NCBI RefSeq assembly: GCF_036971445.1
Contig: NC_091478.1
Location: forward strand, 11,904,001-11,968,000
From: Narcine bancroftii
Taxonomy: Eukaryota
DNA: 64,000 nt
Direction: 5' to 3'
Shown here: positions 5,161 through 55,600 of the stretch, in pieces
Layout of the letters: each line of letters starts with the position of its first letter
Numbering within the stretch: position 1 is the first letter of the stretch
Notes under the pieces: model-generated
The model's input: only the letters and a program-made list of their open reading frames with translations
What the model was told of the DNA's origin: nothing
The model's database searches: none
Program-made: the position numbers and the translations under genes

Positions 5161-5543
5161 CAGTGGTTTTCAATTTCCACACCCCCCCCACCCCACTCAC
5201 ATACCTCCTTAAGTAATCCCTATGGAAGAGGTGCTCTGTGATTAGTCAAGGATTGCTTAAGGTGGTATGTGAGTGGAAAACAAGTTTGAAAACCACCGTT
5301 TTAATTGTCCCTAATTAACTCGTTATGTGCACGGTTTCATAACTCCAAAGAAAATGAGCCAATGACAAATTTTCTCAAGCAAAATATTTCAGTTACAATT
5401 GGGTCGAGAGCAGAGGTTCTCGACCTGTTTTCTCCGCACTCACATACCATTTTAAGCAATCCCTTACTAATCATAGAGCACCGATGGCATAGGGATTACT
5501 TAAGGTGGTATGTGAGTGGAAAGAAAAAGTTCAAAAACCACTG
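5161..5543. mobile_element. hAT (Charlie-like) composite non-autonomous element
   Basis: CAGTGGTT...AACCACTG termini. Exact 8-bp TSD CTCTAGTT at 5153-5160 and 5544-5551. Two hairpin units (5161-5298, 5411-5543) flank a core. Confidence 0.88.
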
Positions 5544-6069
5544 CTCTAGTTGGTGCCTCACCATGGTAGTACGACAGAGTCTGAGTAACTCAGAGGAAGT
5601 CAATTTTGGATGGTCATATTTCTTTTGTGTAACATTAGATAATATATTTACAAACTAAGCAAGTATTTAATGAATTTTGGGTTACATCAGTGCAAACTCA
5701 CAAGTAGCCTTCTCCATTATGAAACATCAAAGTAATCAATTTCATTCATCTTTTTCATGATAATTACATATACAAAAGTAGGCTCAAGAATTTGGAAAAC
5801 AGCTGCTGCACCATTCTGTCTAAAGTTATTTCAGCACACCTTTGCAATAAGGCATATAACTAGACAGATGTTTATGAAAAATGCTCATAATGTGGAACAA
5901 AGAAGCTCTAGGGCAAAAAGATGACCTTTCAAAGTAAGGGTTGATTTTGCATTCTTTATGCAAATCTTGTTAAATCCATATCTAATAGATTGTTTATAAT
6001 TATGACGTGTATTTTTTTTATTCCTTTTAAAAATTTGCACACATGGAATTTCTACACTGAAAATCTTAC

Positions 6070-8087: not shown

Positions 8088-10989
8088 TTCTTTTAATTCT
8101 TTAAATTTATACCCTTGACTTACACTGGCCAAATAACTTGAATGACTAGCCCATATTCACCACATCTCTGAGATTCCTGTAAACTATGTTAAAATTGTTC
8201 ACCTAAAAAGTACTCAACATTTCTTCATAATTATATGCATCTTTTAAAACTGATGGTTATGAGGAGAACTTCGGCCATTCAATATTCCACACACAATTCT
8301 ACTTGAGTAGATTATGTACAGCAATTATGAATCCTTTCTCAGAGCATATATTACTATTTCCATTCTTTTATCCAAGTGACAGAAACATAGACTCTGAGTT
8401 GGCTCACGGCATTAGTCTTGGGAATTACATCTAAAAAAATGTGCATGCATAAATTTACAACTAAACAGCACTGTGGAACTGATCAAAGATGTAGCAAATC
8501 CATGGAAAAGGTCTGGTCATGCTTGAAGGGCTATAAGGTTCACTACAGGTTCTTCAGTCTCATTCTATTTTGCAGAAGTCCCTTTCTAAAAGTTCAACAA
8601 AAATTGTACAAGTTTCTGAAGGTGAAAGACTTGATGCTCTGCTTGTCAGTTTCTTGCATTTATAACGTTTTCAATGGTTTCCATGCTGTCTCTAATCACT
8701 CTACCTAGCAACAGTACAATTACCCTCTCAATGGTTTGCTACTGAATGAAAATTCACACTGTTTAACTTTACAGGTACACTGAATCTTCCTTCACTAGTT
8801 CTTTAAATCGATATCGAACTAAAAACACCCTCATAGCCTTCCTTTGAAGTGTGGTTTTCCACTGTTTATTTTAAAAAATGAAAATTATAACATTTTCTCA
8901 TCATAATATTTGCAGTTTAAATACTTGGTGGGGTCAGATACAAACTTGGAGTGCAACAATGAGAATCAAATCCAGTTATGCAATCATATTAAATGTTCTC
9001 TGCAACAGACAAAATATTTTATCACATCACTGGTTTGCTTTGCTCGACTTAAAATACTTCTCTCTATTCCCCTTCATTCTAACTTTACTCTTTGCTGGGT
9101 CGAACTGTCCCCCGGATTCTCTCTGAGAAATGAAAGGACGTTGAACTTTTCTTCCCCCTCCCTCCCCCGCCTCCACAGGAAATAAGAGGTTCCCAATAAA
9201 TTTAAAGTATCTATTAACTGCTCACTGCTAAAAGTCCATGAGAAACACTAAAGACAGGTTATTCTTACTTAATGACCTATTAATAGGGCTTTAAATATTA
9301 TCATTAGCTGTAAATCCCCACATTTAAGGGTGACTATATTTCAAAAACTGGTCAAAAAAAGTGTTAAACATAATAGTTCTTATTCCCTTTCTTTTTTATT
9401 GAAACAGAAGTAACTGAATAACAATAGATATGATTCAAGATTATTGATCAGTTAATTAAAGTGCACTTTTAAAATGGAACTTGGAGTTAATTTCAATCAT
9501 ATTTTTAGTATTTTTCAAAAAATGTAGGAATTCTTGAGCAAAATTATGTATTCTTCCATATTTCTGGAAAGGTTTTAGCAAAAGACTGGTCACAACTTTT
9601 TACAGGATGAGAGCCAGGCAGGCTGTGGCAGAGCAACCATTTTGAGAAGGACTGTCTTAAGGCAGAACTGCCTGCTGGTGGTGAAAGTATCCATTTTTAG
9701 AAACTGGGCTTTGGTGAGGAAGGCAAGTGTAAGTTAAGGGTTTTGCTTTTTTGCTTCCATGATTTTTTTTCCCCAAAAGGCTGTAATGTTAGTCAGTGGA
9801 GTGGGATATGCCTTCTGTCAATTGTGGGAAATCATTTTCATGAGAACATGACTGGGACTAGGGGGCTTGAATTATGAGAACTGGAGCATTTCACCCTGGA
9901 GCAAAGGACGCTAAGGGAGAACCTTGAAGAGGCTTATAAAATCATGAGGGACATAGATAAGGTAAATAGTCAGAATCTTTTTCAGAGTAGGGAAATCTAA
10001 AATTAGATAGCAACGATTTTCAAGATGGGAAAGATTTAAAAAGGCCCCGAGGGGGGATGGAACAAGCTGGCAGTGAAAATGGTGGAACATTCAAAATATA
10101 TTTAGTCAAGTACATATGTAGGAAAGATTTAGTGGCTTATGAGCTAAGTGCAGACATGATCTTGGGTAGAAATCTTTGTTGCCACAGACGAGTTGGGTCT
10201 TTTTCCATGCTGTACAACACTACGAGTCTAATATTCAACTGCCATTACTTATATGATTGTAAACAAGCAGATATAAGGATTGGCATCATCTTGAATCGAA
10301 GATGCCAACCAAGCAACATCCAACCTGGAAACATTCTTACCAGGCAAACACAATCACAATCATTGAGACTTTTGGTGAAAATGTTATAGGTCAATGCCAA
10401 TTGCCTCCCTTCTGAGTACAGAGGGATTCTAGGGCAAAAATGGATAAAAGGAGCAGACAAAAAGAAACTATAACTAAAGCTGTCAATTTGAGATGTTTTT
10501 ATATAAAGAGGAACTTTATATTTAGTCTCTTCTCGTCTTTCCCCACCAGAAAAATAAACTATATTATACTGAATATATTAGAGAGTTCAGCATCAAAAGT
10601 ACTTAAAGACCAACCTCTCCCCACCCCCACAAAAGAAATTTTAACTATAGATTCTGCATCTAGCTTAAAACTCTAGTAATCTTTATCAGTACTATGCTGG
10701 TGCCAGACTGGAAAATCTTTGGGACTATTAAATGCTGTTCTTGTTAAAACTCAAACACATTTTGAAATTCAATTCTTTTAGATGTTACACACCAATGTAA
10801 TAAAAATTCCAGTAAATCCAGTGAGCTGTAGGGGAGTGGGGGAACCAGAGTCCCAGTGTGTCAAAAGGAACATCAACTGGCATGTCAGATGCTGTACCCT
10901 GGGATTTCCAAGTCATGAGCTAACAGATTATCAGCGTTTTACTGTAACGTGCATTACTAAAGCAAAACAGACCAGAATGTTGCAGTTAC

Positions 10990-11099
10990 CTATCATGTTA
11001 TCCAAGGAGAGGTCTGGAAGCTTTCTTTGTTGTGTGCTCAAAGGGATTCCACAAAATGAAGCCGGACTGTACAAAGGAGAGGCTGTGGAACTTGAGCAA
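10990..11099 (-). CDS. WDR11: WDR11 exon 9 (SCSSSTASPLYSPASFCGIPLSTQQRKLPDLSLDNMI)
   Basis: Lies within ORF 10931..11137. acag|T acceptor, G|gtaact donor. 110 nt. Confidence 0.93.
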
Positions 11100-11358
11100 C
11101 TGTAACAAATACAAAACAGCAATAAATAATGCAACAATAAAGCCTAATAAAAATATCAAACACATGCTGACATGAAAACTGAAATAATGAAAGCTTTATC
11201 ATCAATAGAATGATTAAATGAAAATATTATAACAAAAAGTTTACAATGGGCATTATTTTCACTGCTAAAATACAAGGAGAAGATGCGAGGTGCTGTGGAA
11301 TAATCTGAACTTTTACCTCAGTGACATAGAATCAACTTTTAATGAAATCTTTTTCATC

Positions 11359-11465
11359 GGATACAAATATCTTCTTATTTGAAGAATTCATGCTGCAATT
11401 ATCAACCTAATGATTTAGCATCAAATGACACTACATTTCATGTGCATTTTATAGTAAAGACAGTA
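11359..11465. repeat. Inverted repeat arm A (intron 8), partner of 13868-13974
   Basis: Its reverse complement matches 13868-13974 at 106 of 107 positions (compared by eye). Confidence 0.92.
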
Positions 11466-12300
11466 AATCCTATGACTTTTCCATCGGCAGCAATAGTTTC
11501 TGCATGAAATCATTTGAGGCTGCTTGGTCTAATCCTTAGAAGGTACATACGCACAGCACACACCTGAATATCTGCCCTAGGTGCAGCCCCTCGAGAGAGA
11601 TATTCTTGAGGCCTTTTCCCAGTCGAACTAGAACTGGTCCAGTACCTCAGTGAACAATTCTAGTCAGCAGCTCTGCATTATGATTCAAGGCAGAAATCAG
11701 AAAATTCAAAAGACATGGGAATTAAATAACTTACCAGATCGACAGTCTCAACAACGGAAGAAGAATTAGTGAATTTATCAGGGTGAACATTGACATTATT
11801 TATGATAGATAGAGAAACTTCAATGCAAATTTAATTTACACTGCATTATTTTATGTAAGCATGAATAAATAATGAGAAAATATAAGAATCAGTATGCTCT
11901 ATTATGACCAAAGTTCCTTGAAAATTGAACATTTATAGGGGAACTAATTATTCCCTTCATTTCTAACCACAGGAGCAATCAGTTGGATTGTTGAGATGAC
12001 ATTCATCAGTTTTAGCATGCAGCCTATAACTCAAAAGATACACGTTAGAACATGGAATATACAGGTATTATCACGAGTGGCTATTGAACTACAGCCACTC
12101 AGATTTAAGAGAAAAAATAGACAAAAAAAAGAAGTGAATTAGGTCAGGCTTTGGGGAAACTGCAGAGAAATAGGATGTGACTTAACTATCAGATTAACAA
12201 GAAGACAAACTGCTTTGTACATAATTTTCTGTAATTCAGTGAATTGGTTGATCCAGAATATATCAGAAATCATTTAAATGGAATGCGAAGACAAGGATAC

Positions 12301-12499
12301 CTGTGATAAGGTTTTGGTCCCAATAGGTTGGATTTTAACTCCCACACCATCACTCTGCCATCACTGACAATCAATGCAGCAGAATTTTCACTGACAGCGC
12401 AGCACACCATGTTGAAAGGACGAACGGTCTTGGTGACCCTGATAGCATCACATTGACAACGCAGATCATAAGCAAGTTCCTGAGCAGGTTGATCTGGAT
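12301..12499 (-). CDS. WDR11: WDR11 exon 8 (DPDQPAQELAYDLRCQCDAIRVTKTVRPFNMVCCAVSENSAALIVSDGRVMVWELKSNLLGPKPYH)
   Basis: Lies within ORF 12270..12524. ttag|AT acceptor, AG|gtatcc donor. 199 nt. Confidence 0.95.
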
Positions 12500-13867
12500 C
12501 TAATAACATTACAAAAGTAGACATTTAAACAATGTACAATCTGCAAACTTCCTTTCACCCTCCAAGCCAAAGAAAGATTCCAAAAATACGACATGGATTC
12601 AGTAATTATACACATCTAGGATTAAAAATCATTGGAAAGGAATCACAGATGGAATTAACACTTATTTCATCACTGCTTTAATATCTTTGTTGTCAATTCA
12701 ATGTTTTTAATATTTTTTTCCATTTAAAATATTTTCAACCAGATATTCAGCAGTAATCATTCATAGTTCAGACTCTCAAAATAGTTTCTCATTGTTAGAT
12801 CTTGATATGACAGAAAATCTGTAATTTTCTGACACTCCTTGGCAGGAAGCGGAGCTGGAGACAGTGTTCACTTCCATCTAAGCTGTCATTGTATTTTTAA
12901 CATTTTTGAAAGACTTGTATAATTTCAGTGTTAATTTTTCTTTTATAACAATAACCCCCCCTTCCAGAGATATTTTTATGCTTCTCTTCCTTCTTGTGAA
13001 GATCTTTCTCATAGAAAACTAAAAACTCAACATCATTACAGAAATAATTCTCAGCCAATGTTTCATGGAAATTCCGGTTTATTTTCTCTTTTGTCCTTCA
13101 CTGCCCAGACATACAACTCAGAATCTTATTTGCCTTATCCAAGACCTTTAGAAACTCTGGTAATCTTGACGAGATGTTTGAGTTTGACTTGTTCACACTT
13201 GTTTTTCGTTTTACTCTTAAAATTTATATTTTCACCGCAGTCTTCCCCTTCTTTCAAGATATTCTACATAACTGAACCATATCATATCTCCCAGACACCT
13301 AGTCACTTATTTAATACATATACACCAATGCAAGGGGGCGAAATCACATAATTTAAAGAATAAATACGACAATTTTGGAAAGGTCTGGTAGCCATTTCTG
13401 GATCACATAGGGGCCCAAATACAGTAATAAAAGGGAACAAAAAAGGGTATCAAAGTAACTATTTTTGTGTATATAAAGTTTCCCCAACTGTCCTCTATTT
13501 ACTTAAAATATATGTAAGCTCTGACAGTGAATGGATCTGTATGTATGGAAGGGGAGGAGGGAGGAAAGGACTGTTTTGTTTCTGTTGTGTTTGTGAGAAA
13601 AAAGTTTAATATATTGTATATTTAAAATGTCACTATGTATAACTTTTGAAAAACAAAAATAAAATATTCAAAAAAATGTATCTAACATATTCATACACTA
13701 TACTGAAACAGCAGAAAAATCATTTTTTAACCATCACATCCAAGACCTTCCTCTCTAAAACTGTTTGTCCCATCTTTGACTTCTGACTTTCCATGTGAAG
13801 AATAACTCAGTTCATGTTAACCAATCTTTTATTTTCCCCTTGTCAAAATGCACGATTTTAACTGACA

Positions 13868-13974
13868 TACTGTCTTTACTATAAAATGCACATGAAATGT
13901 AGTGTCATTTGATGCTAAATCATTAGGTTGATAATTGCAGCATGAATTCTTCAAATAAGAAGATATTTTTATCC
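13868..13974. repeat. Inverted repeat arm B (intron 7), partner of 11359-11465
   Basis: TACTGTCTTTACTATAAAATGCAC...AAGATATTTTTATCC is the reverse complement of arm A with one mismatch. Confidence 0.92.
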
Positions 13975-14359
13975 TAATTATTAGTAAATCCTATGACTTA
14001 TGCAGGAATATATTTGCAGTATACTGCTAATTTATTAATTCAACTATAAAACAAAACCACTACTCAGTGTAGTAACTTAATTAAGGACTTCTCTTTGAAA
14101 ATGTTATTGACTGAATTTGGGCTGCAAACTCAGGATAAGAGTTTCTGTTCCAATTAGTCAAGAGATAAAATTTAGAAGATGACAGGGAAAATTATAGACA
14201 TATTTGTGGCCATCAGTTGCCAGAAACAGTAAATAAAGATATTGGACTCGATTTTATGCTTTTGATGAAATTCTGGGATGGAGGCATGTTTAAATAGTCC
14301 CTGGAGGCACTAGTTGAAAAATTTGGCTATCAATTGCATTAAGTTTGGAAACAAAAAAG

Positions 14360-14640
14360 CAGGAAATCTTTCATATTCCATTCAGAATGTCCCAAGTTGT
14401 TTAAGAGCCACCAAGATACTTTTCAGTGCAGTTGCTGTTGTAATGTAGGAAACACAAAGGAGTATTGCGATGATGAGCCTATAAACACCGATTTAGGGAG
14501 GGGAAAATAATATCATAAACTCAGTGTCACTTGACAGAACTTTAATGATTCAGCTGGATGTTTCAGTGTTTTGTGCAGAAGAGGTCTTGAACAAGTAGGC
14601 TCAAAGGGAAAAAGTGTTGCCAAATGAGTCATAACTGACA
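14360..14640 (-). mobile_element. Old Deu-domain SINE-like remnant; similar remnant near 27000-27256
   Basis: Degenerate resemblance, from memory, to the SacSINE1/AmnSINE consensus (TTGGTAGCACT...AGTC head at the 27.2 kb copy; TTTCCTACATTACAACAG...CACTGAAAAGTA tail here). Boundaries approximate. Confidence 0.4.
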
Positions 14641-14809
14641 CTATACAAGAATAGATACATTTTTCATAATTTTCAACAGAACTCCAAAATTAGAATACTG
14701 GCTGTAAATCATTCAAATAATGTAATCAAGTTCGATGCTGTTAACATTATTCAATGATAAATCATTGATGTTTTGTCACCCAGCAACTTTGAAGAGAAGA
14801 AATGCTCAC

Positions 14810-14924
14810 CTTGCTCTTCAGTGGGGAGTGCCAGTGAATTGGAATTCGATCGACGTACCCTTAATGTAATACAACCATTTTCATGAAGACAGAATAAAGC
14901 ATCTCGCTGACGACAAGGAATGAC
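14810..14924 (-). CDS. WDR11: WDR11 exon 7 (VIPCRQRDALFCLHENGCITLRVRRSNSNSLALPTEEQ)
   Basis: Translated by hand. ctag|GTC acceptor, G|gtgagc donor. 115 nt. Confidence 0.95.
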
Positions 14925-16399
14925 CTAGGGCATAAAACTAAGCAACTTTAAAAAAATGTGACTTTCCGTAGTGTGGTCTATTTAAATATAAGAAAATAGC
15001 TAAACTTCCATTTCATGGTTATTTCCAGTACAAACTGAAAATATTGAATGTTAACAAAACAAACCAAAAATAGTGACCTCGCACACATCTTGTAATGCTC
15101 ATCACCTGTTGCCATATCTGTCAGCAGGAAAAAGCCACATGGTATATTTATTACAGATACAGGTATTCACACTTTACAAATTCTCACTTTACTCAAATTT
15201 GCTTTTACAAAGAAACCTTTGTTCGCTTTTACAAATGGATTTTTGCTTTTACGAAAGGCGGCCAGCGGGGCGGTCAAAACTTGTTTTCCCAATTCTACAC
15301 TGTGCAGACATTATTTCTACTTTATATAGGCTGTGTATTTATATCATTCCTGCTATTATTACTATATATTAGTGTTATTTTAGGTTTTATGTGTTAATTG
15401 ATATGATTTGGTGAGTTATTTTTTGGATCTGAGAACGTTCAAAAATTTTCCCTATAGAAATCAATAGTAATTGCTTCTTTGCTTTACGCTTTTTCAGCTT
15501 TCAAAAGGTCCCATACGAACACTCTAGTTTTGTAAAATGCTCAGATTATACCTGGGGAGAGAGATGAGATTGTAAATTAGAGTAGAAGTTCTTAGCCCAT
15601 TGAATCTGCTCTACTTTTCCCAACCATTACTACTTCAGCAAAGAAAAGTAAAAAATGTAGATGCTGGAATCTTGAGGGTATAAAGTGAAGTTGTAGGGAC
15701 TTAGCGGTCAGGTACCATTTATAGAGAGAAATAAGCAGTCAATATTTCAGATTCGACCCTTTTATTGTGACTTGTTTTGGGAGGAAAACTAGTTGATGAG
15801 ATGTCCTATTCAGTTCTAGTTTCCATCTCTCCTTTACCTGCTGCCAATCTCACTTTTCATTCCCCACCCAATGCTCCTAGTTATCTCATCCCCTACCTTA
15901 CTTGCCACCACTTCCACCTTCTTCTGTTGTGTATCATATTGCCTCTTTACTCCTCCCCAGCCCCTTCCACCTCTAGTCCTTTCTCTTTACACTTAACATG
16001 TCCCTCTCCTGCATTAGTCTTAATAGAGGGTCCTGACCCAAAACGTTGACTGAACATTTTGCTCCAGGGATATTACCTAACCTACAATGACCAAGTATCC
16101 AGCTTCTAGAGATTAAAAATTCCCAAAGGTTCTTGCTGTGAAAACCTTCCTTCATGTCAGTTCTAGAAGACCTACAATTTCGAAAGTATGGTCCAAGGCT
16201 ATTGCGAGATTCTCTCCAACCTGGGGAAACAGCCTCACAAAAAACATTTTGTCAAACCCTCATTGAATCTGACATATTTCATCAAAATGGTCTTGAATTT
16301 TTCTAAACTCCCAAAAGTATGGGATAATTCTTCTAAATATGAAATTTTCTTGCAATAAATTTAAGTAAACAAGCTTCAACAAGTTGAAGAAAAATGTCA

Positions 16400-17140
16400 G
16401 CACTGCTGGTGTTGCTGTGATGGCAGTGCAGACACAGCGCTGCTCCGAAGGGTTCAACCACCCAGTTCTAGCATCAGCGGCTCCGTACAGGCTTTAAACA
16501 CCTGTAAAAGGAGCCAACAGTGCTGATAAACAAAATCTTGCAACTGCAGGATCTGGGCCCAAGATGACGCCACCTGAGCATGGAAACAGCCACAAGGGGT
16601 TGCAGATTTCGGGGAACAAGGCATCTGAAACAGAAGTACACCTCCTGTTGAGAAGGAGAAGCAAAGGAGGTGACCCTACAAGGAAGGTGACCATGGCAGT
16701 GGAACAGTGAGGGGCTCAGCAGTGAAGGACCCACGAGGCAGCAGGCTGTTTGGTGGACGCGGTTGAAGGTCTCATACAGGCTGTGGGCTGCTGGAGACTG
16801 GCTCATGGGAACCAGGTATCGGAGCCAGGGCAAGGGCTCCTGAAGGGCCTCGGGCACTGAAGGTTTCCTGATTGTGTTAAAGGTTTGCATCTGGAGCTCA
16901 GATGTAATTGCCAATGGATCGAAAAGGAGTCTGTATGGCTACAGAGGTTGTGGGAACGCGGGAGGCGAATCAACAGACACTCAGTGACTCTGAAGGGACT
17001 CTCTTTTGCTTCTCTCACTGTAAGGAATGCTTAGCGACTCTAATGGCTACTCTCTGTCTCCCTTATAGCAAGCAGAGGCAATTTTCTGTAATATTACATG
17101 TTCTTTACTATGGACAAAGGAATCTGAATCTTCAAGATTC
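16400..17140 (+). repeat. Unclassified GC-rich interspersed repeat; second copy near 54500-55125
   Basis: Shared blocks in both copies (GGCTGCTGGAGAC.GGCTC...ACCAGGTATC, TCCTGAAGGGCC, CTCAGTGAC.CTGA..GGA.TCTCTTTTGCTTCTCT). Boundaries approximate. Confidence 0.65.
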
Positions 17141-17231
17141 CATCAATTAAATATTCTCTATGTTAAATATTCTCTATGTATACTGAACACGTCAATGTTA
17201 AACAAAGGCAGCACATCTGAGAAATATTTAC

Positions 17232-17397
17232 CTGTAGAAAAGGAGCTCCTGTTCTTTCAATTGCCACTATGCCTACAGTTTGGTTTACTTCCAAGTCAAG
17301 AATCAGGATTTCTCTGGGGTACAATAGCAGCATATGGTTCCTCTTTGATGGCAGATAAGATAACTGCAGGCAGTCATTCAAAGTTACCGACTCAGCA
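17232..17397 (-). CDS. WDR11: WDR11 exon 6 (AESVTLNDCLQLSYLPSKRNHMLLLYPREILILDLEVNQTVGIVAIERTGAPFLQ)
   Basis: Lies within ORF 17163..17429. ttcag|T acceptor, CAG|gtaaat donor. 166 nt. Confidence 0.96.
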
Positions 17398-18439
17398 CTG
17401 AAAACCAGACAAATTAAATGTAATTGCAAAAAGCTTATTACGTGAAAAATTATTTAGTTTTTCCCCAAATATTGAAACCAAATGCCTTAGAATGAGGGAA
17501 CATGTTTCCTTTCATTCCGATGAAGTTCAAAACATTTAGATATGGAGTAATTCTGAGAGCAAAAATTGACATTTGGCATTTAAAGCTAAATGTGGCCTGA
17601 AGCATCATTAATTCCTTATATGGTACATATCTAAAAGACCGAAAAGTTCAATTATCAAAACTTTTCTTCGGTGGTGTCATGACATCACAAGTTGAAAAGA
17701 TTTTTTCACCCAATAAGCTCATGTTGGGCCCGATTCCCCCACTCCCAAATCCAATGACTCATCGGGTTATACCCAAATTCTCGTTAAATTGGGATGCGTA
17801 AAATCAGGGTTTCACTGTACCTTGCTCTGGACTGACAAGCAAAAAATGGCAAGGTATCCTTTTCTCAATTTTTTAACATTAATGAAACAATTAATAGAAT
17901 TCTTAATATGCAGAAATGCTCAGTTGGGCAATAAGTAAATATGTTTAGCACTTTGATACCCATATTTATTGACAAGCTAAACAGTTTGGCTATTATTGGG
18001 GGAAAAAAAAGTTATAAATTTCTCAAAGTTTTTGGGATAACTGTAATCATGAAAACGACTATCCCTCGATCCAAAATGTCCAGCCACAATCAGGAACAAA
18101 ATAAAAAGCAATTCAACTGGAAGAAACATATTGCTATGACATATTGTCGAAGCAATTCAATTACCGTTGACTGTTTGGTAAAATAATAATCAAAATATAC
18201 ATTTTAAAATTATACATCAGTTATTGTAAACAAATTCCACATTTCCAAATATTCCTGAATAGGAAACCATCAGGGAAAGTTATTTGAATTATTAATGTTC
18301 GTATCATTAAATGCAATGCCTTATAAATAAAATAGTAATTCTCTTCATGACTAGTAGGGATTATTCTCAGTAATGAAATATTAATTCAAAACAACTAAAA
18401 GTGTAAAATACAAATGGTTTACCTTAAAATTCAACTTAC

Positions 18440-19793: not shown

Positions 19794-20629
19794 AGTCCTA
19801 GAACCATTTACCATGGGGAAAAAGACTGTGAGCATTCACTTTATCCATGACCCTCATGCATTTTCTTTATACCTCCATAAGTTCACCTCTACCCTCCTTT
19901 GCTTGAGATAAAAAAATACCCAGCCTATCCAACTTTCTCTGTAATTTAGCCCCTTCTGTACCAGCAGCATCTTGGTGTATCTCCTCTGAACCCCTTCCAT
20001 TTTACTGATGTCCTTCCAATAGCTGGGTGACCAGAACTGCAAACAACTTTAAAAGTTTGCCTACACCCTTGAAGATCAAGTCATTAATGGTCATCTAAAA
20101 GAGTAATGTTCCATGCTTGAATCACCAGGCATGTTACCCTCTGAGAAACAGTCATTAGTTATAATTGCCTTCCCTTTTTTAAAATTTCATGGTCAATTCT
20201 GCCACAAGCTTTATATGTGGTTCTTATCAAATATTATCCAAGTCTTATATATACACACTCCAAACACTGTACTCTAATAAACCAAGTTCCACTGATTTAC
20301 TTATTTGCAGCCAACAATACATGGATAACAATTCTTCTGAACATATTTTGCAAAGTCCTCCTTCTTTTCCCTTAACTATCTCTATCATGTTCTCCTCTTA
20401 CCAATATTTGTTTAAAGTTTGCTATCTACATTTTCTTTCTGTTTAGTTGCCTATAAAATACAGCAAGTAGCTCTTTACCTCCTTAATTGTTCAATATGAT
20501 TTTTAGATTACTGCTTCAAACAGATATTAACTGTCCCTTGCACCATAAAAACCAGCTATTCTAAAAAAATAAACATGGTTGCATCAGTAATTGACCTTCT
20601 GCCAGGACACTTTGTACTTATTTACACAA

Positions 20630-21331
20630 GTGTATAAAGCTCTGCCACCACGTGTATAAAGCTCTGCCACCACGTGTATAAAGCTCTGCCACCACGTGTA
20701 TAAAGCTCTGCCACCACGTGTATAAAGCTCTGCCACCACGTGTATAAAGCTCTGCCACCACGTGTATAAAGCTCTGCCACCACGTGTATAAAGCTCTGCC
20801 ACCACGTGTATAAAGCTCTGCCACCACGTGTATAAAGCTCTGCCACCACGTGTATAAAGCTCTGCCACCACGTGTATAAAGCTCTGCCACCACGTGTATA
20901 AAGCTCTGCCACCACGTGTATAAAGCTCTGCCACCACGTGTATAAAGCTCTGCCACCACGTGTATAAAGCTCTGCCACCACGTGTATAAAGCTCTGCCAC
21001 CACGTGTATAAAGCTCTGCCACCACGTGTATAAAGCTCTGCCACCACGTGTATAAAGCTCTGCCACCACGTGTATAAAGCTCTGCCACCACGTGTATAAA
21101 GCTCTGCCACCACGTGTATAAAGCTCTGCCACCACGTGTATAAAGCTCTGCCACCACGTGTATAAAGCTCTGCCACCACGTGTATAAAGCTCTGCCACCA
21201 CGTGTATAAAGCTCTGCCACCACGTGTATAAAGCTCTGCCACCACGTGTATAAAGCTCTGCCACCACGTGTATAAAGCTCTGCCACCACGTGTATAAAGC
21301 TCTGCCACCACGTGTATAAAGCTCTGCCACC
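20630..21331. repeat. Perfect 22-bp minisatellite (GTGTATAAAGCTCTGCCACCAC) x ~32 in intron 4
   Basis: 702 bp / 22 = 31.9 units. I saw no variant units and no spacers. Confidence 0.97.
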
Positions 21332-27574: not shown

Positions 27575-28420
27575 TGTTCAGGTGCCTTGCCATTCAGTGT
27601 GGGCGATGATGGCTCTCCCCCCATCACTGTCTCTGAATTGTAGTTGTTGCCTCCCCTCTTTCTAATCCTGATGTTAATCCATCTCTCATTTTCATTCTAC
27701 ATCTGCCTCTGCTTCTTTTTCCTTCCAGCTTTCCAGTTGTAACTAAATGTTCTAATGTATCACTTCACATGATGTGTCCAAATAATTTTGATGGCTGTTT
27801 TCTTTTAAGTAATATAATAGAAACAACACAACTTTCCTCAACCCACTGGGGTGGCTGTATAACTTGAAGATAATATCAAGGGATATGGGGGAAAAGGCCA
27901 GAATTGGGACGAGATGTGAGAACAATTTAGCTCGGGATGGAGCGGCAGAGCAGACTCGATGGGCCGAGTGGCTTGCCTTTGTTCTTTTATCTTGTGAAAA
28001 TATGTTTTGTTTTTGTTCTTTGTAGAACATTTTTGTCTGTTATCCTGCCTGTACATGATATGCATAGCTTTCTTCTGAGAAACTACATCTCTGCTACATT
28101 GATTCTTTTTTCTATTGCATTTGCATTGGTCCATAACTCGCAGCCATACATCAATGTAGGAAAAATGTAGCAGCTGTGAGTTCTAAGGTGGACGTCAATT
28201 GCTACTTTCTTGTTCATTAGAATGGTTCTCATTTCTATAAATGCTGTTTTTGCCATTGTTATTCTTGTTTTTATGTCTATTTTGTATTTGCCATCAGATG
28301 GTACCCATGATCCAAGGTACTTGAAGCTGTGAACTTGTTTCATGATTTAATTTCCCAATACGATTCTACAATTTGGAATATCAGGTTTCTTTGATATTTC
28401 CATTACTTCAGTTTTCAGAT
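27575..28420 (-). mobile_element. Old RTE-clade LINE 3' fragment, interrupted by a CR1 tail (~27850-27997)
   Basis: ORF 28083..28343 (FKYLGSWV...IKTRITMAKTAF...CYIFPTLMYGCELW) resembles the C-terminal region of RTE reverse transcriptase. Confidence 0.7.
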
Positions 28421-32831: not shown

Positions 32832-33752
32832 TTTCTTTGGCTTGGCTTCGCGGACGAAGATTTATGGAGGGGGTAAAAAGTCCACGTCAGCTGCAGGCTC
32901 GTTTGTGGCTGACAAGTCCGATGCGGGACAGGCAGACACGATTGCAGCGGTTGCAGGGGAAAATTGGTTGGTTGGGGTTGGGTGTTGGGTTTTTCCTCCT
33001 TTGCCTTTTGTCAGTGAGGTGGGCTCTGCGGTCTTCTTCAAAGGAGGTTGCTGCCCGCCAAACTGTGAGGCGCCAAGATGCACGGTTTGAGGCGTTATCA
33101 GCCCACTGGCGGTGGTCAATGTGGCAGGCACCAAGAGATTTCTTTAGGCAGTCCTTGTACCTTTTCTTTGGTGCACCTCTGTCACGGTGGCCAGTGGAGA
33201 GCTCGCCATATAACACGATCTTGGGAAGGCGATGGTCCACCATTCTGGAGACGTGACCCACCCAGCGCAGCTGGATCTTCAGCAGCGTGGACTCGATGCT
33301 GTCGACCTCTGCCATCTCGAGTACTTCGACGTTAGGGATGAAAGCGCTCCAATGGATGTTGAGGATGGAGCGGAGACAACGCTGGTGGAAGCGTTCTAGG
33401 AGCCGTAGGTGGTGCCGGTAGAGGACCCATGATTCGGAGCCGAACAGGAGTGTGGGTATGACAACGGCTCTGTATACGCTTATCTTTGTGAGGTTTTTCA
33501 GTTGGTTGTTTTTCCAGACTCTTTTGTGTAGTCTTCCAAAGGCGCTATTTGCCTTGGCGAGTCTGTTGTCTATCTCATTGTCGATCCTTGCATCTGATGA
33601 AAATGCAGCCGAGATAGGTAAACTGGTTGACCGTTTTGAGTTTTGTGTGCCCGATGGAGATGTGGGGGGGCTGGTAGTCATGGTGGGGAGCTGGCTGATG
33701 GAGGACCTCAGTTTTCTTCAGGCTGACTTCCAGGCCAAACATTTTGGCAGTT
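32832..33752 (-). mobile_element. Young 5'-truncated RTE-clade LINE (RT C-terminus plus C2H2 finger)
   Basis: ORF 32887..33681 (RLAKANSAFGRL...VYRAVVIPTLLFGSESW...QLRWVGHV...CNRCNRVCLSRIGLVSHKRAC). One frameshift near 33603 separates the upstream FGLEVSLKKTEVL...FTYLGC. CpG-rich, with a CCAAGCCAAAGAAA tail. Confidence 0.9.
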
Positions 33753-34325: not shown

Positions 34326-34786
34326 TTTTCAGCACATTTGGTTTTAAAATGAGAGTCCAGGTCTCACAATGCCAGACATCATTTTAGCACGTTCTGTAAG
34401 TGCATTACCTGGCCCAACACTCTGAAACAACTTTCGATATTCTAAATCCAAGGAAGAAAATTATTCCAATGCTTTGCGTTATATCTGTTTCTTCCACTTA
34501 ATCATCTTAACTGGTAGCAGTTACCTTACTTGGGGTTCTGTAATTCATTACTTCATGCAAGTCCATTTGCACTGATTATTTATTTAATAGGTTATTGGCA
34601 AATGTATCAACTTTCAAAATGACTGAGAATTAAATTATTCAGAAACTGGTATCTTCAAGTCACATGGCATCTGTTGTGTAAGATTAATATAGTTAGGAAT
34701 GTTATATTTGATTTGAATTGGGCACATTGTACAGTGCAAATGACTAACAACAAAATGGTCCCGATCCTTCGCATAAGCCTTTAAAA

Positions 34787-34913
34787 CAGTGATTCTCAAC
34801 CTTCCTTTTCCATTCGCATACCACTTTAAGTAATCCCTATGCCATCGGTCCTCTGTGATTACCAAGGGATTGCTTAAGGTGGTATGTGAGTGGAAAAAGG
34901 TTGCAAACCACTG
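34787..34913. mobile_element. Single-hairpin hAT MITE (monomer of the composite element)
   Basis: CAGTGATT...AACCACTG termini, palindromic body, exact 8-bp TSD CTTTAAAA (34779-34786 and 34914-34921). Confidence 0.88.
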
Positions 34914-35184
34914 CTTTAAAACTATTTTTGTTAATGTACACCTTTGCTTTGAAAAAAATCACACTAATTCTGATTGTCCAGATTAAAATGATCAGAAATC
35001 TGAAAGAATAAAGCAATATAATATCATTTACATGAATAGTCAGATACACACTCCAGGTTCAAACTTGATTCCCCTGAAATAACAAGTCATTAAGTCTCAA
35101 AATAATCTAAAACTTTTAGCTGTAAAGTCGTATTATTATCTTTAAAATAATCTTAGGATCAATTTTAGCCAAAAATAACATTAA

Positions 35185-39300: not shown

Positions 39301-39429
39301 CTCCCTTACATCTCTTCACACCGTATCCCTTGTAAAGGTTCTCAATGAGGCATGCAAAGCATTGTATTGTGGCTGAGGATTTCTGTTGTCTCTGGGGCAT
39401 AAACGGGAAATGTTAACGAGAATTAAAGA

Positions 39430-39729
39430 TAGTGGTTTTCAAACTACACTTACATTCCACCTTAAGCAATCCCTATGCCATAGGCGCTCTGCGATTCGGA
39501 AGGGATTGCCTAAGGTGGCATGCGAGTGGAAAGAAAAAGGTTTGGAAACCTCTGTTTTAATTGTGCCTCGTTGACTCATTAGGCGCACGGTTTCAGAACT
39601 CCAAAGGAAATGGGCCATCAAGCAGTGGTTCTCAACCTTCCCTTCCCACCTTAAGCATAGGGATGACTTAAAGTGGAATGTGAGTTTGGTTTTGGGGGGG
39701 GGGGGGGGGGGGCAGCTTGACAACCACTG
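39430..39729. mobile_element. hAT composite element copy with internal deletion
   Basis: Same hairpin-core-hairpin order as 5161-5543, with a truncated core. No clear TSD. Confidence 0.75.
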
Positions 39730-39972: not shown

Positions 39973-40460
39973 CTGTGAAGATAACCACGTATATCAAGCC
40001 GTTCCGACACAAACCAAGTGACTCAAGAGGGCGGCGAGGGAGCTGACAGGGAGGGGGGTGGAGGCGAAGCCTGCTCCTCCTGTGTGGGACGTGACCCCCC
40101 GGCCTGGGGCCTGGGGCCTGGGCCCAGGGAGGGCCCGGCTGCCTCGACTCACCAGTCCGCTGCCCCTCTGTTCTGCCCGCTCAGCGTCCCCGTTAACGTC
40201 CTGGCGGACAGCTTGATGTTCACCGACAGCACCATCCTGGCTCCCCCTTCCCCCGCTCCCGAGGAGACCCGACCTCCTTCCCCCACCCCCCCTTCGGCCC
40301 CTTCACGCAGGCAGGTGCCGACTTCCGGGGCTGCCGTGGAAACCGGAAGCGAGTGGGCGGGCGGTCTCCTCGCCGGCCATCCCGGCACTGGCCGCCGGGC
40401 CACGGGGGGCGCTGTTTCCACCTTGGCCTGCTCCGCTTGCTGGATGCAGGAAGTGACCCC
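39973..40460. promoter_or_regulatory. CpG-island, TATA-less promoter of WDR11
   Basis: GC/CpG-rich block around exon 1 in an AT-rich background. ETS-type sites ACTTCCGG (40321-40328) and CCGGAAGC (40343-40350), GC box GGGCGG (40355-40360), CAGGAAGTG near 40447. Confidence 0.85.
40153..40235 (-). CDS. WDR11: WDR11 coding exon 1 (MVLSVNIKLSARTLTGTLSGQNRGAAD + TG)
   Basis: ATG in strong Kozak context (GCCAGGATGG). Peptide matches the WDR11 N-terminus as I recall it (VNFKVSARTLTG...AAVDW). Donor TG|GTGAGT. 83 nt. Confidence 0.93.
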
Positions 40461-43400
40461 TGCTGGAGAGTGCCTTTGGGAGACAGGGGTTGGCAATCCA
40501 TTGCATCAGATCTTGGTCCTTAATGTTTTTAAGTAAAAGCAACAAAAAAAAATGCAAATGCTGGAGATGTAAAATGAAAACACAAAATGCTGAAATAATC
40601 AGTTGGTGTGAGCCATTTGCACAGTTGTGCTCTCATCTACATTATGTCGATAAGTGACCTTCCGCCAGCCTCCACGTTCCACAGAACATCCTGCATAATT
40701 TGGGTCACCTTCAACGAGCTGTTGCATCCTTCTCCTTCCCCTGTCATCCTTCTATAGGGACTGTGCGTTCTGGGAGGGCCATCATCCACTCCCATTCTTA
40801 TACAGTAGAAGTCCAAAACTACGGATGCCAACATTTCAGAGTAGCTGAGAATCTGGGCTTTTTGGAAACTCTCAAACTTTTTAAATTTAGCGGGGTTTTT
40901 TTTTGTGGGTGGGTATTGACTTCATTTTTCTTTAAAACTGCTCGTTTTGATAAATGAACCATGCTGTATTTGCTAATGAATTAACCATCAAAATTTACCT
41001 GTTCACCTCTTCTTACTTCTGCTTAAATTTGAATTTTAAAAGTTCTGCCGGAGAATTGGAAAATCCATTCCCAGAGCAGGCCGGATTTTCAGACAGACTG
41101 AACATCTATCGCTGGCAACCTTCAAGAGATGCGACACCTACCCTCTTAACTCAAAGGCTCCACCATCGAGGGAGCCAAATGTTCTTTTCAGGGGAAGCAA
41201 CTTTTGACGCCCTGGATAAACAGGAGCCTATCAATCTCTGTCTTAAATACACCCAATGACCTGGCCTCCACAACTTCCACTTCCAATTTATTGCACTGCA
41301 AAAGCATCAAATGCCACTAGCGAAATATTCATTTTTGTCAACAAAAAAAAAATTAGGAAGAGGGAGGGGCAGAGTGCTTGAAAAGGTAGTGTCATCTATC
41401 AGTAAGTTTCCCTTGAGAAAGTAGTGCTCATTGATCAAGGGTGGACTGAATGAGGATTTCCTCTTCTCAAGAATATTAGTGGAAATTTACAACCATCTAG
41501 TCCCTGATGCAGGGTCTCAACTAGAAAGATCTACCACCTCTTTGCCTCCCCAGGTGCTGCCTGACCCATTAAATTCTTCCAGCAGTTCATGATTGAATCC
41601 ATTATTTTTGTGGTTATCATTACCGAGAAGGCAAATTTCAGACCATTTACTTAATTTAAAAGTCACAGCTGCCGCAGTGAGATGAGTTCAGTTTTTATTT
41701 CAGGCCTCCTACCCAATAGATGAGTCAATTATCCACAGCAAGGCCTCTGGATCAATAACCTGTGTTTTTTTTAAACTAAAATCCCAACCCTGAGAAAATT
41801 GTTTATTAAGGTTACCTGCAGCCTGATGGGCACAGCAAGGTAAAAATGCTCAACGAATTTAATTTTAAAAAAAATTTAGACATACAGCATGTTATCAGGC
41901 CCTTTCAGCCCACAAGCCAGTGCTGACCAATTACCCCAATTGACCAAGAATTTCTGGTATGTTTTGAATTTAAATCTTTGCTCCTGTACCTCCTGAATAT
42001 TGATATTCATATTTAAGGCCATGTGACATAGGAGCAGAAATAAGCCATTTAACCCATCGAGTCTGCCCCACCATTTAATCATGAGCTGATCCATTTCCCC
42101 ATTTAGTCCCACTGCCCCGCCTACTCCCCATAACCTTTGACGCCCTGGCTAAATAGGAGCCTATCAATCTCTGTCTTAAATACACCCAATGACCTGGCCT
42201 CCCTAAAGAAATCCCTCTGCATCTCTGTTCTCGGTGGCAAAGAAAGCGTATGGTATGCTTGCCTTCATTGGTCAGAGCACTGAGTTTAAGACTGAAGAAG
42301 TCATGTTACAGCTATATAAAATTTTTGTTAGGCTGTAATATGCGTATTGTTCGCTGACCCATTGCAGGAAGGATAAGGAAGCTCTAGAAATGATGCAGAA
42401 GACATTTCCAGTTGAGCGGATACTACTTCAAGTGCAGTCTAACAAAAATTTAATGCAAGACTTCTTCAGTCTTATACTCAGTGCTCCGACCAATGAGGGC
42501 AAGCATACCATATGCTTTCTTCGCCATCCAATCCACTGTGTGGCTACTTTCAAGTATCTGTGGATGTAAACCCCCAGATTCCTCTGTACATCAATGTTTT
42601 AAAGAGTCTTGCCATTATATGTATACTTTCCCCTTACATTTGAACTCCCAAAGTGCAACACCTCCTACTTGTCTGGATTAAACTCCATCTGCCATTTTTC
42701 TGCTGATATCTGTAACTGATTTATATCCTGTTACATTCTTTGATAGCCCTCTACACTATCCACAGTGCCACCAATCCTTGTGTGATCTGCACCCTTATTA
42801 ACGTATCTACTTCAATTTTCATTCAAGACATTTATGAGGTGGAAAGGCATGTCGCAATGAGGACATTATGATTCCTAATGGGCAAAAACAGAGGGGAAGG
42901 TATGAGAGATTATGAACTGCAGTAAAGACAAATTAAAAGGCAGGTTTTATCTCAATGGAGAACAATTGAAAATGAATGGCATTCAGATAGATCTTGTTGT
43001 CCAAGTGCATGAACCTCAACCATTTAGCAGGGAGGTCAAATAGGTAGCAAAAGAGATAATCGTTCATTGGGTTTTGTTGCAAAGGAATTGGAGTTTAAGA
43101 ATAGGGAGGTTTTGTTACTGTTGTACAGAGTGTTGGTGAGCCTACGCCTGGAATAGGATTTAGAGTTTTGATTCCCTTACAGCAGCCAGCATTGGAGATA
43201 GTCCAAAGGAGCTTCACAAGGCAAATGACTGGGATGAGTGTGTTCTCCTATTAAGAAGATGAAACAATTTCAATCTGTAATCCTTGGAGTTTAGAAGAAA
43301 AAAAGATCTAAAACCAAAAGGAGCTGGGCAGTCTAGGTTTGAGATGTTTTCACCAGATAGGGATTTAGCTGCAAAATAAGAGGCATCAAAATTTATTTTA

Positions 43401-50365: not shown

Positions 50366-50575
50366 TTTGAAGACCGCAGAGCCCACCTCACTGACAAAAG
50401 GCAAAGGAGGAAAAACCCAACACCCAACCCCAACCAACCATTTTTCCCCTGCAGCCGCTGCAACCGTGTCTGCCTGTCCCGCATCGGACTTGTCAGCTAC
50501 AAACGAGCCTGCAGCTGACGTGGACTTTTACCCCCTCCATAAATCTTCGTCCGGGAAGCCAAGCCAAAGAAAGAA
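50366..50575 (+). mobile_element. Short 3' copy of the same young RTE family as 32832-33752
   Basis: Near-identical to the reverse complement of ~32833-33042. Ends in CCAAGCCAAAGAAAGAA. Confidence 0.9.
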
Positions 50576-51384: not shown

Positions 51385-52237
51385 GGAGGGAAGTTTGCAT
51401 TATGTTCTGAGCTTCATTTATCAACTTTTGTAGCTTCTTTCAATCTTGAGGACAGCTCCCATCCCACGCTTTGATGCATCCAGCCAGTATACTTCTGAGG
51501 GTATCCTTGTAGATGTTGCTGAGAGCCAAGGAGGAGATCCTTAGTTTTAAAAAGAAGTAGATGTGTTGATGCGCTTTCTTGACTGTGTGTCAAAGTGCTT
51601 GCCCGGGTTGTCATTTTATATTTTGTCATTTTCTTTAATATAGTCATCGTTCTCCCTCCTAATTGCTACTGTCCCCTCCCTCCCTTCTCCACTTATCACC
51701 TCCTAACTTTGCGACCAAGCCTCCCCCCTACTCTTTTGCTTGGATGCCTGTCGAAATTTTTCTATGCCTTGATGAAAGGCTCCAGCCCGAAACATCAGTT
51801 ATGTATTTTTACCTTTGCTATAGGGGTAAAACACTGTTTGACATGCTGAGTTTCTCCAGCATTGTGTGTTTTTAAGTCATTGGAGTTGTTTATTCCTAAG
51901 AACATGAAGCAATCTACACTTTCCATCTCAGCACCATTGATATAGCCAGGTGTGTGGTCGATGCCCCTGTTCCTGAAGTCAGTATCATCTCCTTCATCTT
52001 TTTGATATTAAGGGAGAGATTGTCCTTTGGCACCATGCCACTCAACTTTCAATCTCTTTCCTATATTCTATCTTATTATTATTTGAATCCCAGCTTCTAC
52101 TGATGTCACTGGTGAATTTGAAAAATGGATTTGGAACAATATTTAACTGTACAATTTTGGGCATAGAGGGAGTGTAGTAAGGGAGTGAGTTAGACAGGAA
52201 GGTAAGCATCCATTACAATGGGGAGAAGATGTTGAAG

Positions 52238-52619
52238 TAGTGGTTCTCAACCTTTTTCTTTCCATTCACATAGCAGTTTAAGTAATCCCTATGCCATCAG
52301 TGTTCTGTGATTAGTAAGGGATTGCTCAAGATGGTGTGTGAGTGGGAAGGGAAGGTTGAGAATCACTGTAAATCACGGTAAAAGAATCACTGCTCTAGGT
52401 CCAATTGTTACTGAAATATTTTGCTTGAGAAAAATTGACATTGGCCCATTTCCTTTGGAGTTATGAATCCGCGCACATGAGTCAAATCAAGTATGATTAA
52501 AACAGTGGTTTCCACCCACATACCACCTTAAGCAGTTGCTTACTAAGGACAGAGCACCTATGTCATAGGGAATACTTAAAGTGATATGTGAGTGGAAAGA
52601 AAAAGGTTGAGAACCTCTG
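52238..52619. mobile_element. hAT composite element, inverted relative to 5161-5543
   Basis: Hairpin-core-hairpin, with the core matching the reverse complement of 5299-5410. Decayed TSD TGTTGAAG / TGCTAAAG. Partial monomers also near 54070-54150 and 54285-54365. Confidence 0.82.
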
Positions 52620-55600
52620 TGCTAAAGGCTAGATCTCATCGTTTTAGAATATGTTTGATTGGGACTATGGTATTGAAGGCAAAGCTGCAGTCTGTCAGAA
52701 ATGGTCTTACATAAGTGTCTGGCATCCAGATAGGTGAATATAGATAGCAGCAGGAATTACAGAAGGTGTTCAGAAGCAGTGACTTCTCACAGAACTCCCT
52801 TCAAAGAGAGGAGAAGAACTTCTTCAGGGTAGGCACCCTTCAAAGAGACTTCACAGTTCAGCAACTGAATGCAGTGAAACAAGAAAGTCTGTAGACGATG
52901 TAATTGTAGTTCCTATTACTTCCAAGCCTTTTTCTCTTCTGCCCTCTGAACCATATCCTCTGGCCTGTGGGCCAGTGCCCCTCTCACACCATTTCATTCA
53001 GCCTGCTTTCCACTCACACCTTGACGAAGGGATCAGGCCCGAAATGTTGAGTTTTTTTTCTCATTGATTATCTTTTCCAGATAAAGAATGTTGCATGACC
53101 TGCTGAGTTTCTCGAGCACTTTTGTGCACTGAACCACCGTATTCAAGGACAGTTTCTTCCCCACCATTACAAGAGTGTTGAACAGACCTCTCATTAGTAA
53201 AACATTTAACTAAACATTTATTCTGTCACACTATTCGCTGCAATTTGTTTTATTTTGCATTCTCTGCTGTATTTGGGCATGGGTTGACTGATCAGGAAAG
53301 CACGTCAAATAGTTTTTCATTGTATCTTGGTACGTGTGAGGCTCATTGTCTGGTTTCAAGCAATACTGTGTCATCCCTTGAAACATTTTCTAGTTCTCCC
53401 TCATTATATAATTAGGCTTTAACTGGAATGCAGCTAATCCATAAGACAAATGTCAAACTGTTCAAACAATATTACCTTCACTCCAGAACCGAGGATTCTC
53501 CAATCTCACATATCGAGCTCCATCCAGTCAGCTGACAATGCCTGTGCATGCAGGCATTCAAAGGGCCAGCATCCATATCACTGTTGACTTGTTCACTGAA
53601 GTGTACCAGAAAATGAACCTTATACTATTGGGGATATGAAAGCTTGCTTCTGCTTGAGTAGCCTGCAAATTGTGGGTGGGGCGGGGGGGGGGGGGGGGTT
53701 GTGTTCATAGCTACATGGTTGAAAATTAAGTTAGCAAAATCCCAACATGCTCTTCATATTGTTGAATGCTGTTAGATTTCATAATCATTTATAATTTAAA
53801 CCAACTTACATAAAATGTAGAAACAGTTGAATGATCTTGTCAGCTGCATAAAACAGAATATAGAATGCAAACTAGCACATAGTTACAGAGCCAATCAGAT
53901 CAAACAGCTGGAATTAAGAGTATATGAGCACCCTCCATGACTTCTTGACGCTGTTTATTCTTCACTCAAGGTCTGCATGAGGAGTGGATCTCCACCATTC
54001 AGCAGAAACCCAAAGCCAAGTTCCAAAGTAAACAACTCACTTTGATTTATTTGTATCCTGCCTTTAGATTAGGGGTTCTCCACCATTTTTTCCCCACTCA
54101 TGTACCACCTTAAGTAATCCCTTACTAACCTCAGAGCACCTATGGCATAGGTTGTCATCGGTGCTAATTAAAAGCACGAGACCATCAGAAACTTTAAAAT
54201 TCACTTGTTATCAATTTAACATCTGATTTTCCTGCATTCCCATTTATGAAAATGATCTTGAAACTTCTTTGTAATCAGAGCATCAATGGCTCTCAACCTT
54301 TTTTTTAAACACTCACATGTCACCTTATGTAATCCCTTTCTAACCACCTACGGCATCCTTATGGATTCCCCCTATTGGTTTCCAGTGGATTTATTTACTC
54401 TTTCCACCATGCTTGTTCAATTACTTACTCTAAAACATGGGGAGAAATTAACATCTAATCTTGTAAATGACAGATGACTCTTTTCACACTTTTCCGGGAT
54501 GAGTTGTTAAATATTTTGTATCAGTCCAGCAGCAGATTGGCGCAGGTGCCCAGTAATGGGGAGAGCACCTCACCGTTGAGGAGAAGCTGAGGAGATGACC
54601 CCCCCCCCCCCCCAAGGTCTGTGACCGTGGCGGCAGACAAGCGAGCATCTCTGTGGTTGAAGGACATACACACACAAGGCGAGCTGTTGGTGACTTGCGG
54701 GCAAGGAACCCACACAGGCTGTGGGCTGACGGCGACTTGAGGACAAAAGACTCACAACAGGTTGCGGGCTGCTGGAGACCGGCTCCATGAGCACCAGGTA
54801 TCGCAACTGGGATATGAGAGGGTGCTAAGGGCAAGGAGGAGTCCTGAAGGGCCCTAGGTACTGAAAGCTTTATTATCATGTCTGGGGTTTAGATCTGAGC
54901 TCAGTTGTCGATGGTTTGAGCTGAATTGGAATCTTGTATGGCTGCTGAGGTTGCGGGAGCACTGGAGCCAAATCTGCCAACGCTCAGTGACACTGAGAGG
55001 ATTCTCTTTTGCTTCTCTTTCTGTGACTGTAAGGGGCACCAGCAAATGCTAATAGCAGGCTAAAGGCAGTTTTGTATAATGACATTTGTTTCATCACATA
55101 ACAATAAAAAATTCTGATATGATCTGATATATTGAAACACAAACTTGTCTAATTTTTAAAGATTTCCATTTTGAAACCACTTTGTGACCCAAATTCATAT
55201 TGTTAAATTTGAATGCACTGTTAACTAATGTGATTTTTATGAATTGACCTTTGATTAAAAATTAATCCCTAATGTCTTCTCCCTTTTATTTTCACTTTGT
55301 AGTCTTTGAGATTTCTAATGATTGTGAACTGCCTGTGGTTTTCAAGGATCTCAATGCCGTCCCATTTGCTCCTTTGGTACTTTGGGCAGACAGGCCAGAG
55401 ATTTCAAGGAGTCAGTGAAAATGTTGCATTGCTTCCGTGCGGGTCTTGAGCACATCTTCCTATTTTTCCTTCTATCTACCTGTAGCAGGGTTCAGAAAGG
55501 ATTCTGAACTTCATCACATGTATTTCAAATGGGGAGCCTTTCACACAAACAATGCAGCTTTCCATCTGCAGCGAGGTCCTCAGTACTTGACCTGCTGTTT

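Follow-up and report, generated by a model that had tools for sequence, protein, structure and literature searches.

Does a near-perfect inverted repeat that brackets a single exon serve its gene, or is it a by-product of copying accidents in the DNA? This question is raised by two complementary segments in the introns on either side of exon 8 of WDR11 in Narcine bancroftii, within a window of 64,000 nt (the whole stretch of DNA that was analysed). The original prediction proposed that the segments loop exon 8 out of the pre-mRNA and thereby exert a dosage control on WDR11. The present analysis suggests instead that the pair is most probably an ordinary young repair-mediated inverted duplication from intron 7, with little or no effect on WDR11 splicing.

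The gene was identified as WDR11, on the minus strand, through a match of the exon peptide, whose best named-protein match is stingray WDR11 (94%); searched alone against Pfam, the peptide gave no match above the cut-off. Twelve WDR11 exons with an open frame were placed on the minus strand by tblastn and splice-site inspection, exon 1 ending at 40153. Three of them flank or lie within the repeat:

Exon 7: 14924-14810, 115 nt, minus strand; placed by tblastn, RNA-contig joints and splice-site inspection.
Exon 8: 12499-12301, 199 nt, minus strand; placed by tblastn and RNA-contig joints; lies in the loop of the predicted stem.
Exon 9: 11099-10990, 110 nt, minus strand; placed by RNA-contig joints and splice sites; holds a premature stop if exon 8 is skipped.

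Isoform X2 of the stingray protein (P0003) has about 13 extra residues (approximately 175-187) between exons 4 and 5, which tblastn did not place in the window; they possibly represent a micro-exon or an alternative splice site.

The repeat consists of the following arms:

Intron-8 arm (acceptor piece 1): 11359-11465, no strand assigned; inserted inverted copy of 13868-13974.
Intron-7 arm: 13868-13974, no strand assigned; putative donor (original) and sole other copy in the genome, 9 nt from the donor of piece 2.

The arms are reverse complements at 106 of 107 positions, with the single mismatch at 11364/13969, and the complementarity stops abruptly at both ends. They are spaced 2402 nt apart and have only exon 8 between them, at distances of 835 nt (intron-8 arm) and 1368 nt (intron-7 arm). 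A DNA search of the species' own genome (3.33 Gb) returned two matches, i.e. both WDR11 arms, and a 28-mer arm pattern with at most one mismatch gave one forward and one reverse match genome-wide (control, 0). A high-copy repeat or a pair of transposon ends is ruled out by this copy number; no multi-copy family was found, and there is no duplication around the outer ends of the pair. The anatomical part of the original prediction thus stands: a near-perfect 107-bp inverted repeat with one mismatch, no third copy and no transposon termini, which, as RNA-contig joints and splice sites confirm, encloses only the 199-nt exon 8. The concern that the arm might prove to be a high-copy repeat genome-wide was settled by the two matches.

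Contig sets from 8 of the 12 listed sequencing runs were used, comprising X1 (DNA), X5-X8 (taken as RNA) and X9-X11 (other species). In X1, the core shared by the arms (11365-11465, 101 nt) forms one contig with a depth of 26.4, whereas the intron-8 flanks have depths of 12.7 and 13.3; contigs carrying both intron-7 flanks connect to this core contig. The doubled depth and the joining flank contigs indicate that both arms exist in the reads and rule out an assembly artefact. No allele lacking the insert was seen in X1, the only same-species DNA run examined, which may be the assembly's own source sample.

The insert in intron 8 extends beyond the arm and comprises 107 nt of inverted and 13 nt of direct sequence, copied from donor stretches 9 nt apart. 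Its additional features are as follows:

Acceptor piece 2: 11462-11478, plus strand; exact 17-nt direct copy of 13984-14000, the first 4 nt (AGTA) overlapping the end of piece 1.
Donor of piece 2: 13984-14000, plus strand; exact 17-mer partner of 11462-11478.
Left copy of a 12-nt near-direct repeat: 11349-11360, plus strand; 11/12 identical to 11476-11487, the last 2 nt being common with the donor.
Right copy of the 12-nt near-direct repeat: 11476-11487, plus strand; the first 3 nt are common with the donor, and alignment to relatives resumes at 11479.

The 17-mer occurs twice in the window, on the plus strand only. The two pieces meet at a 4-nt microhomology joint without filler, and the three junctions of the insert overlap the donor by 2, 4 and 3 nt. 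No poly(A) tail was found at the insert. The 12-nt near-repeat, present around the intron-8 arm only, was equalled at 11/12 by 7 of 8593 control positions (slack of +/-5), and represents either a target-site duplication or templated filler. Copying in the opposite direction, from intron 8 to intron 7, would require a filler of 8 nt as well as an overlap by coincidence. It is unusual that the two copied pieces share a single site of origin, on the same donor strand.

Comparison with relatives gives the direction and age of the copying. Orthologous contigs from X10 and X11 skip 11339-11478, so that the site is empty in both informative other-species runs; the third, X9, yielded no orthologous contig and was excluded from this count. 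The empty site shows that the intron-8 arm is the derived copy. X10 and X11 carry 18 letters at the site, 8 of which match 11341-11348 while 10 differ, and owing to the latter a true target-site duplication looks the same as a deletion with filler. Neither run gave an arm-like contig (92% and 55% of those runs were read), the donor locus lying outside the compared stretch; the ancestry of the intron-7 arm as donor is therefore inferred. The two copies differ at 1 of 120 positions, versus 6.8% and 8.1% substitutions to the relatives over aligned pieces that include some exon. Were the copy as old as the split, the probability of at most one mismatch would be 0.003 and 0.0007, respectively. On this sequence comparison the copy appears to be young, or else homogenised, since high identity could also stem from gene conversion. 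Given its absence from relatives 7-8% apart, youth accounts for the 99% identity, which is thus no sign of selection. The pair is lineage-restricted, as had been anticipated, X10 and X11 both lacking the insert.

These features are most readily accommodated by templated repair of a DNA break or stalled fork, which would have copied intron 7 into intron 8, about 2.4 kb away. A break at approximately 11350-11480 may have left two ends that both primed on one (plus) donor strand at sites about 26 nt from each other; copying would have extended over 107 nt from the left end and 17 nt from the right, and the new 3' ends would then have annealed at AGTA/TACT, as in two-ended SDSA. A single nascent strand undergoing three template switches at an uncoupled fork would give an identical product. 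Under either course the arms would be 99% alike through recency of the copy rather than selected pairing, and the enclosure of an exon would be due to chance. The lack of poly(A), together with a template strand that runs antisense to the mRNA, makes WDR11 RNA an unlikely template.

The closest known products are the repair-mediated duplications (RDs) of Pace et al. 2009 (PMC2671141), which in the accessible text have donors within 5 kb, a mean length of 162 bp and microhomologies of 2-9 nt, show deletion, filler or duplication at their breakpoints, include chimeric acceptors annealed at microhomology, and also occur in zebrafish and chicken. The WDR11 insert resembles them in its length of 120-130 nt (theirs being at least 50 bp), its one other genome copy, a donor 2402 nt away (<5 kb), microhomologies of 2-4 nt, the lack of poly(A), the empty orthologous site and two donor pieces joined at microhomology. 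It differs in that its donor pieces lie 9 nt apart on one strand, whereas the five cases with two nearby donors given there span 289-3432 bp, and in that it sits in unique intron DNA rather than in a TE. Its host, a cartilaginous fish, is outside the species list of that source. Similar products were reported among human polymorphisms as the 'Inverted Dup' class of 1000 Genomes phase 3 (PMC4617611), described there as inverted copies of <1 kb within 5 kb, not attributed to retrotransposition and making up 54% of validated inversion-type sites. The WDR11 copy is likewise <1 kb, inverted and <5 kb from its partner; unlike those polymorphisms, it includes a second piece in direct orientation, and the single same-species DNA run showed no empty allele. 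None of the papers listed by the literature search mentions WDR11, which does not in itself establish absence from print.

The same origin may be granted and the stem may still act on the RNA, measurably looping out exon 8 in some tissues to give an NMD-bound frameshifted mRNA and/or a 199-nt circle and so lowering WDR11 output. This reading is unlikely, although several observations speak for it. The MFE structure of the region 11200-14100 (2.9 kb) contains 106 predicted arm-arm pairs, and the predicted arm duplex reaches -170 kcal/mol at 37 °C versus -16 and -18 kcal/mol for the single arms. The stem is predicted to be stable, but it would last only until the removal of intron 7, and transcription reaches the 3' splice site of that intron about 1 kb ahead of the partner arm. 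That skipping of exon 8 shifts the frame, as originally predicted, is borne out by the computed skip frame, which stops in exon 9, 48 nt ahead of the next junction, with more junctions downstream, and encodes a product of 349 aa. By the 50-55-nt rule the skipped mRNA would be a target of NMD, which would hide the product. A coding circle was rejected, as the 199-nt circle runs into stops in the other two frames, and a search of 11000-15000 against Rfam returned no structured RNA family at gathering score.

Transcript evidence came from X5-X8, four runs of one study with the tissue unstated, which were guessed to be RNA, as fits their GT-AG joints. Canonical joins between exons 7 and 8 and between exons 8 and 9 were found among the assembled contigs of all four runs, so that canonical inclusion is the assembled path throughout. 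In X6, X7 and X8 exons 9-8-7-6 are all covered by one uninterrupted contig; the only break in X5 is at the exon-8 donor, where there is likewise an intron-8 contig, and no contig breaks at the 7-8 joint. Neither a 7-9 skip joint nor a back-splice joint is present among the 15 joints listed of 290 in the contigs of these runs. Contigs lose rare and NMD-bound forms, and low-level skipping or circles may therefore escape notice. Clustered A-to-I editing of the duplex by ADAR would leave base changes, and over the intron-8 arm, the arm to which this comparison applies, none were seen in either contig that spans it, from X6 (605 nt, depth 7.0) or from X5 (1085 nt, depth 10.3), so that these two intron-8 contigs appear unedited. 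RNA cover of the bin 13818-14054, containing the intron-7 arm, was nil in all four runs while intron 8 was partly covered, and this was not used as evidence. Thus the proposed looping of the pre-mRNA by the arms holds as far as predicted pairing goes (106 pairs), but assembled RNA shows normal inclusion of exon 8 in every run.

Several other features of the RNA contigs were recorded. Low-depth contigs cover intron 8 (11100-12300) in all four runs (1085 nt in X5), which may reflect partial retention or slow splicing. A donor weaker than all others is not supported as the cause: the intron-8 site has 6 of 9 matches to the consensus, the same as 4 of the other 9 donors scored. A repeat fragment at about 13480-13670, in intron 7 and inside the loop, draws many diverged RNA contigs, and a repeat near 16.7-17.1 kb dominates the RNA-contig matches in 10500-17600.

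Two precedents bear on the looping of exon 8. Stem-induced exon skipping is represented by the TBXT AluY/AluSx1 pair and the mouse Tbxt allele insRCS2 (PMC10901737); in the latter, an inverted copy of 220 bp of an intron arose at a CRISPR target site and the skipped isoform became the major one. As there, a non-TE intron segment is inverted into the neighbouring intron of WDR11 and brackets one exon; unlike the Tbxt case, where skipping was measured and dominant, the WDR11 arm is 107 bp (half the Tbxt length) with 29% GC, lies 835 and 1368 nt from the exon, and shows no skip in the listed contig joints, and skipping would shift the frame. For RCM-driven circRNA, the accessible part of Liang and Wilusz 2014 (PMC4201285) reports that circles form in minigenes with repeats as short as 30-40 nt, that circularization was poor for ZKSCAN1 exons no longer than 400 nt, and that it did succeed for exons of 336 and 360 nt from other genes. 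Complementary introns that are predicted to pair flank the WDR11 exon too, and the arm exceeds the 30-40-nt minimum. In contrast to those systems, the exon of 199 nt is shorter than the natural-exon inserts that circularized in that source (336, 360 and 500+ nt), distances of 0.8-1.4 kb separate the arms from the splice sites, and no back-splice is among the joints listed.

Origins other than local repair are far less probable. They would make the arms the terminal inverted repeats (TIRs) of a transposon or separate insertions of one rare element, or would trace the pair to an L1-type retro-insertion by twin priming or to an inversion of which it is the relic. In the twin-priming model, inverted and direct pieces are joined at microhomology, a geometry resembled by the inverted upstream and direct downstream pieces here. 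Unlike such an insertion, the WDR11 insert has no poly(A), and both pieces would have been templated on the plus strand, antisense to WDR11 RNA. Unlike the TIRs of DNA transposons or MITEs, the arms exist in only two copies, the 12-nt repeat occurs at one of them, and the outer ends are without duplication. An inversion finds some support in an X9 contig (196 nt, depth 2.56) which links the inner flank of intron 8 to the intron-7 allele of the arm, in the shape of an inversion junction. However, exon 8 is in its native orientation and colinear in the relatives, and the contig can equally be read as trace DNA assembled across a collapsed repeat, the run having no other orthologous cover. This contig covers window positions 11359-11498 plus 56 further letters, and likely derives from trace DNA.

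How often such pairs arise was estimated in a background sample of 1.464 Mb, consisting of the window and 140 tiles from two contigs. Pairs were retained if they were at least 50 nt long with at least 93% identity and the partner led any other match by a margin of 4 points. Of the ten inverted pairs retained in this way, one has a 185-nt spacer, four are long (623-1335 bp) and spaced at 5.8 kb or more, and the remaining five have spacers between 1335 and 2402 nt. The five with intermediate spacers, including the WDR11 pair, are 105-317 bp long and 95-100% identical, and cluster in a narrow band of 1.3-2.4 kb. The others in this band have partners 1.3-1.9 kb away with 95-100% identity:

L013:2261-2511, local inverted copy.
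L039:9885-9994, local inverted copy.
L104:7731-8047, local inverted copy.
L044:784-888, local inverted copy.

For all four of these control pairs the local partner is the sole full-length match in the genome, and two of them lie within 200 kb of the window. Outside the window (1.4 Mb) the rate is 2.9 pairs per Mb (95% CI 0.8-7.3), resting on four events in two contigs, and would correspond to about 9,500 pairs genome-wide (2,600-24,000) if the sample is typical. This density exceeds the human figure of 0.62 per Mb of TE DNA given by Pace et al. 2009 (PMC2671141), although the methods differ. The 0.5-5-kb band also contains seven direct matches, one of them from a tandem array, so that the pattern extends beyond inverted copies. 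The enclosure of an exon was evaluated by placing a pair with the 2402-nt spacing at 28,388 positions with both arms in WDR11 introns: exactly one exon was enclosed in 52% of placements, and a frame-shifting set in 46%.

Other repeats were noted in the window. A 71-nt direct pair upstream of WDR11 exon 1 (41199-41269 and 42132-42202; 96% alike, 862 nt apart) has other copies in the sample at 87% or less, and is a candidate second local duplication. A 205-nt inverted pair around exon 1 (32832-33036 and 50369-50572; 97%, 17 kb apart) failed the single-partner filter and is therefore likely to belong to a young repeat family. Intron 4 contains a near-perfect 22-bp tandem array of about 32 units at 20627-21331. 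Palindromic MITE-like copies with 70-88% identity are scattered in both orientations across the WDR11 introns and upstream DNA:

5193-5545, MITE-like copy.
34776-34919, MITE-like copy.
39418-39617, MITE-like copy.
42235-42526, MITE-like copy.
52236-52630, MITE-like copy.
54065-54151, MITE-like copy.

The proposed dosage control on WDR11 is not supported by these comparisons: the anatomy of the insert and the empty site speak for an accident of repair or copying, pairs of this kind number about 3 per Mb, and half of the placements (52%) enclose one exon. The least credible reading is that the pair is a selected lineage-specific regulatory element whose near-identity is held by selection for pairing, which might be argued from the 99% identity, the lack of an empty allele in X1 and the presence of the insert also in RNA contigs of X5 and X6, from other samples, but youth explains the identity, comparable pairs are common, no product was seen among the joints listed and there are no compensatory changes to examine.

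As a probable young repair-mediated duplication, the single WDR11 locus matters little, being a clean and readable case of a known repair product. The significance of the class may be broader. At a density of about 3 young inverted pairs per Mb, perfect non-Alu stems would bracket exons in many of the genome's genes, and the class would constitute a natural experiment on how often such stems alter splicing and whether selection purges those around frame-shifting exons. One could go further and suppose that the genome keeps making short near-perfect non-transposon inverted copies from 1.3-2.4 kb away (about 10,000 young events, by extrapolation), and that those straddling exons act as spontaneous splicing alleles like Tbxt insRCS2; in some tissue, the WDR11 pair would then send a real share of transcripts into exon-8 skipping with decay, or into a circle. 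This proposition as a whole is unlikely. Should the WDR11 pair indeed lower output, it would represent a case from the wild of a break-repair scar creating a splicing-based change in expression.
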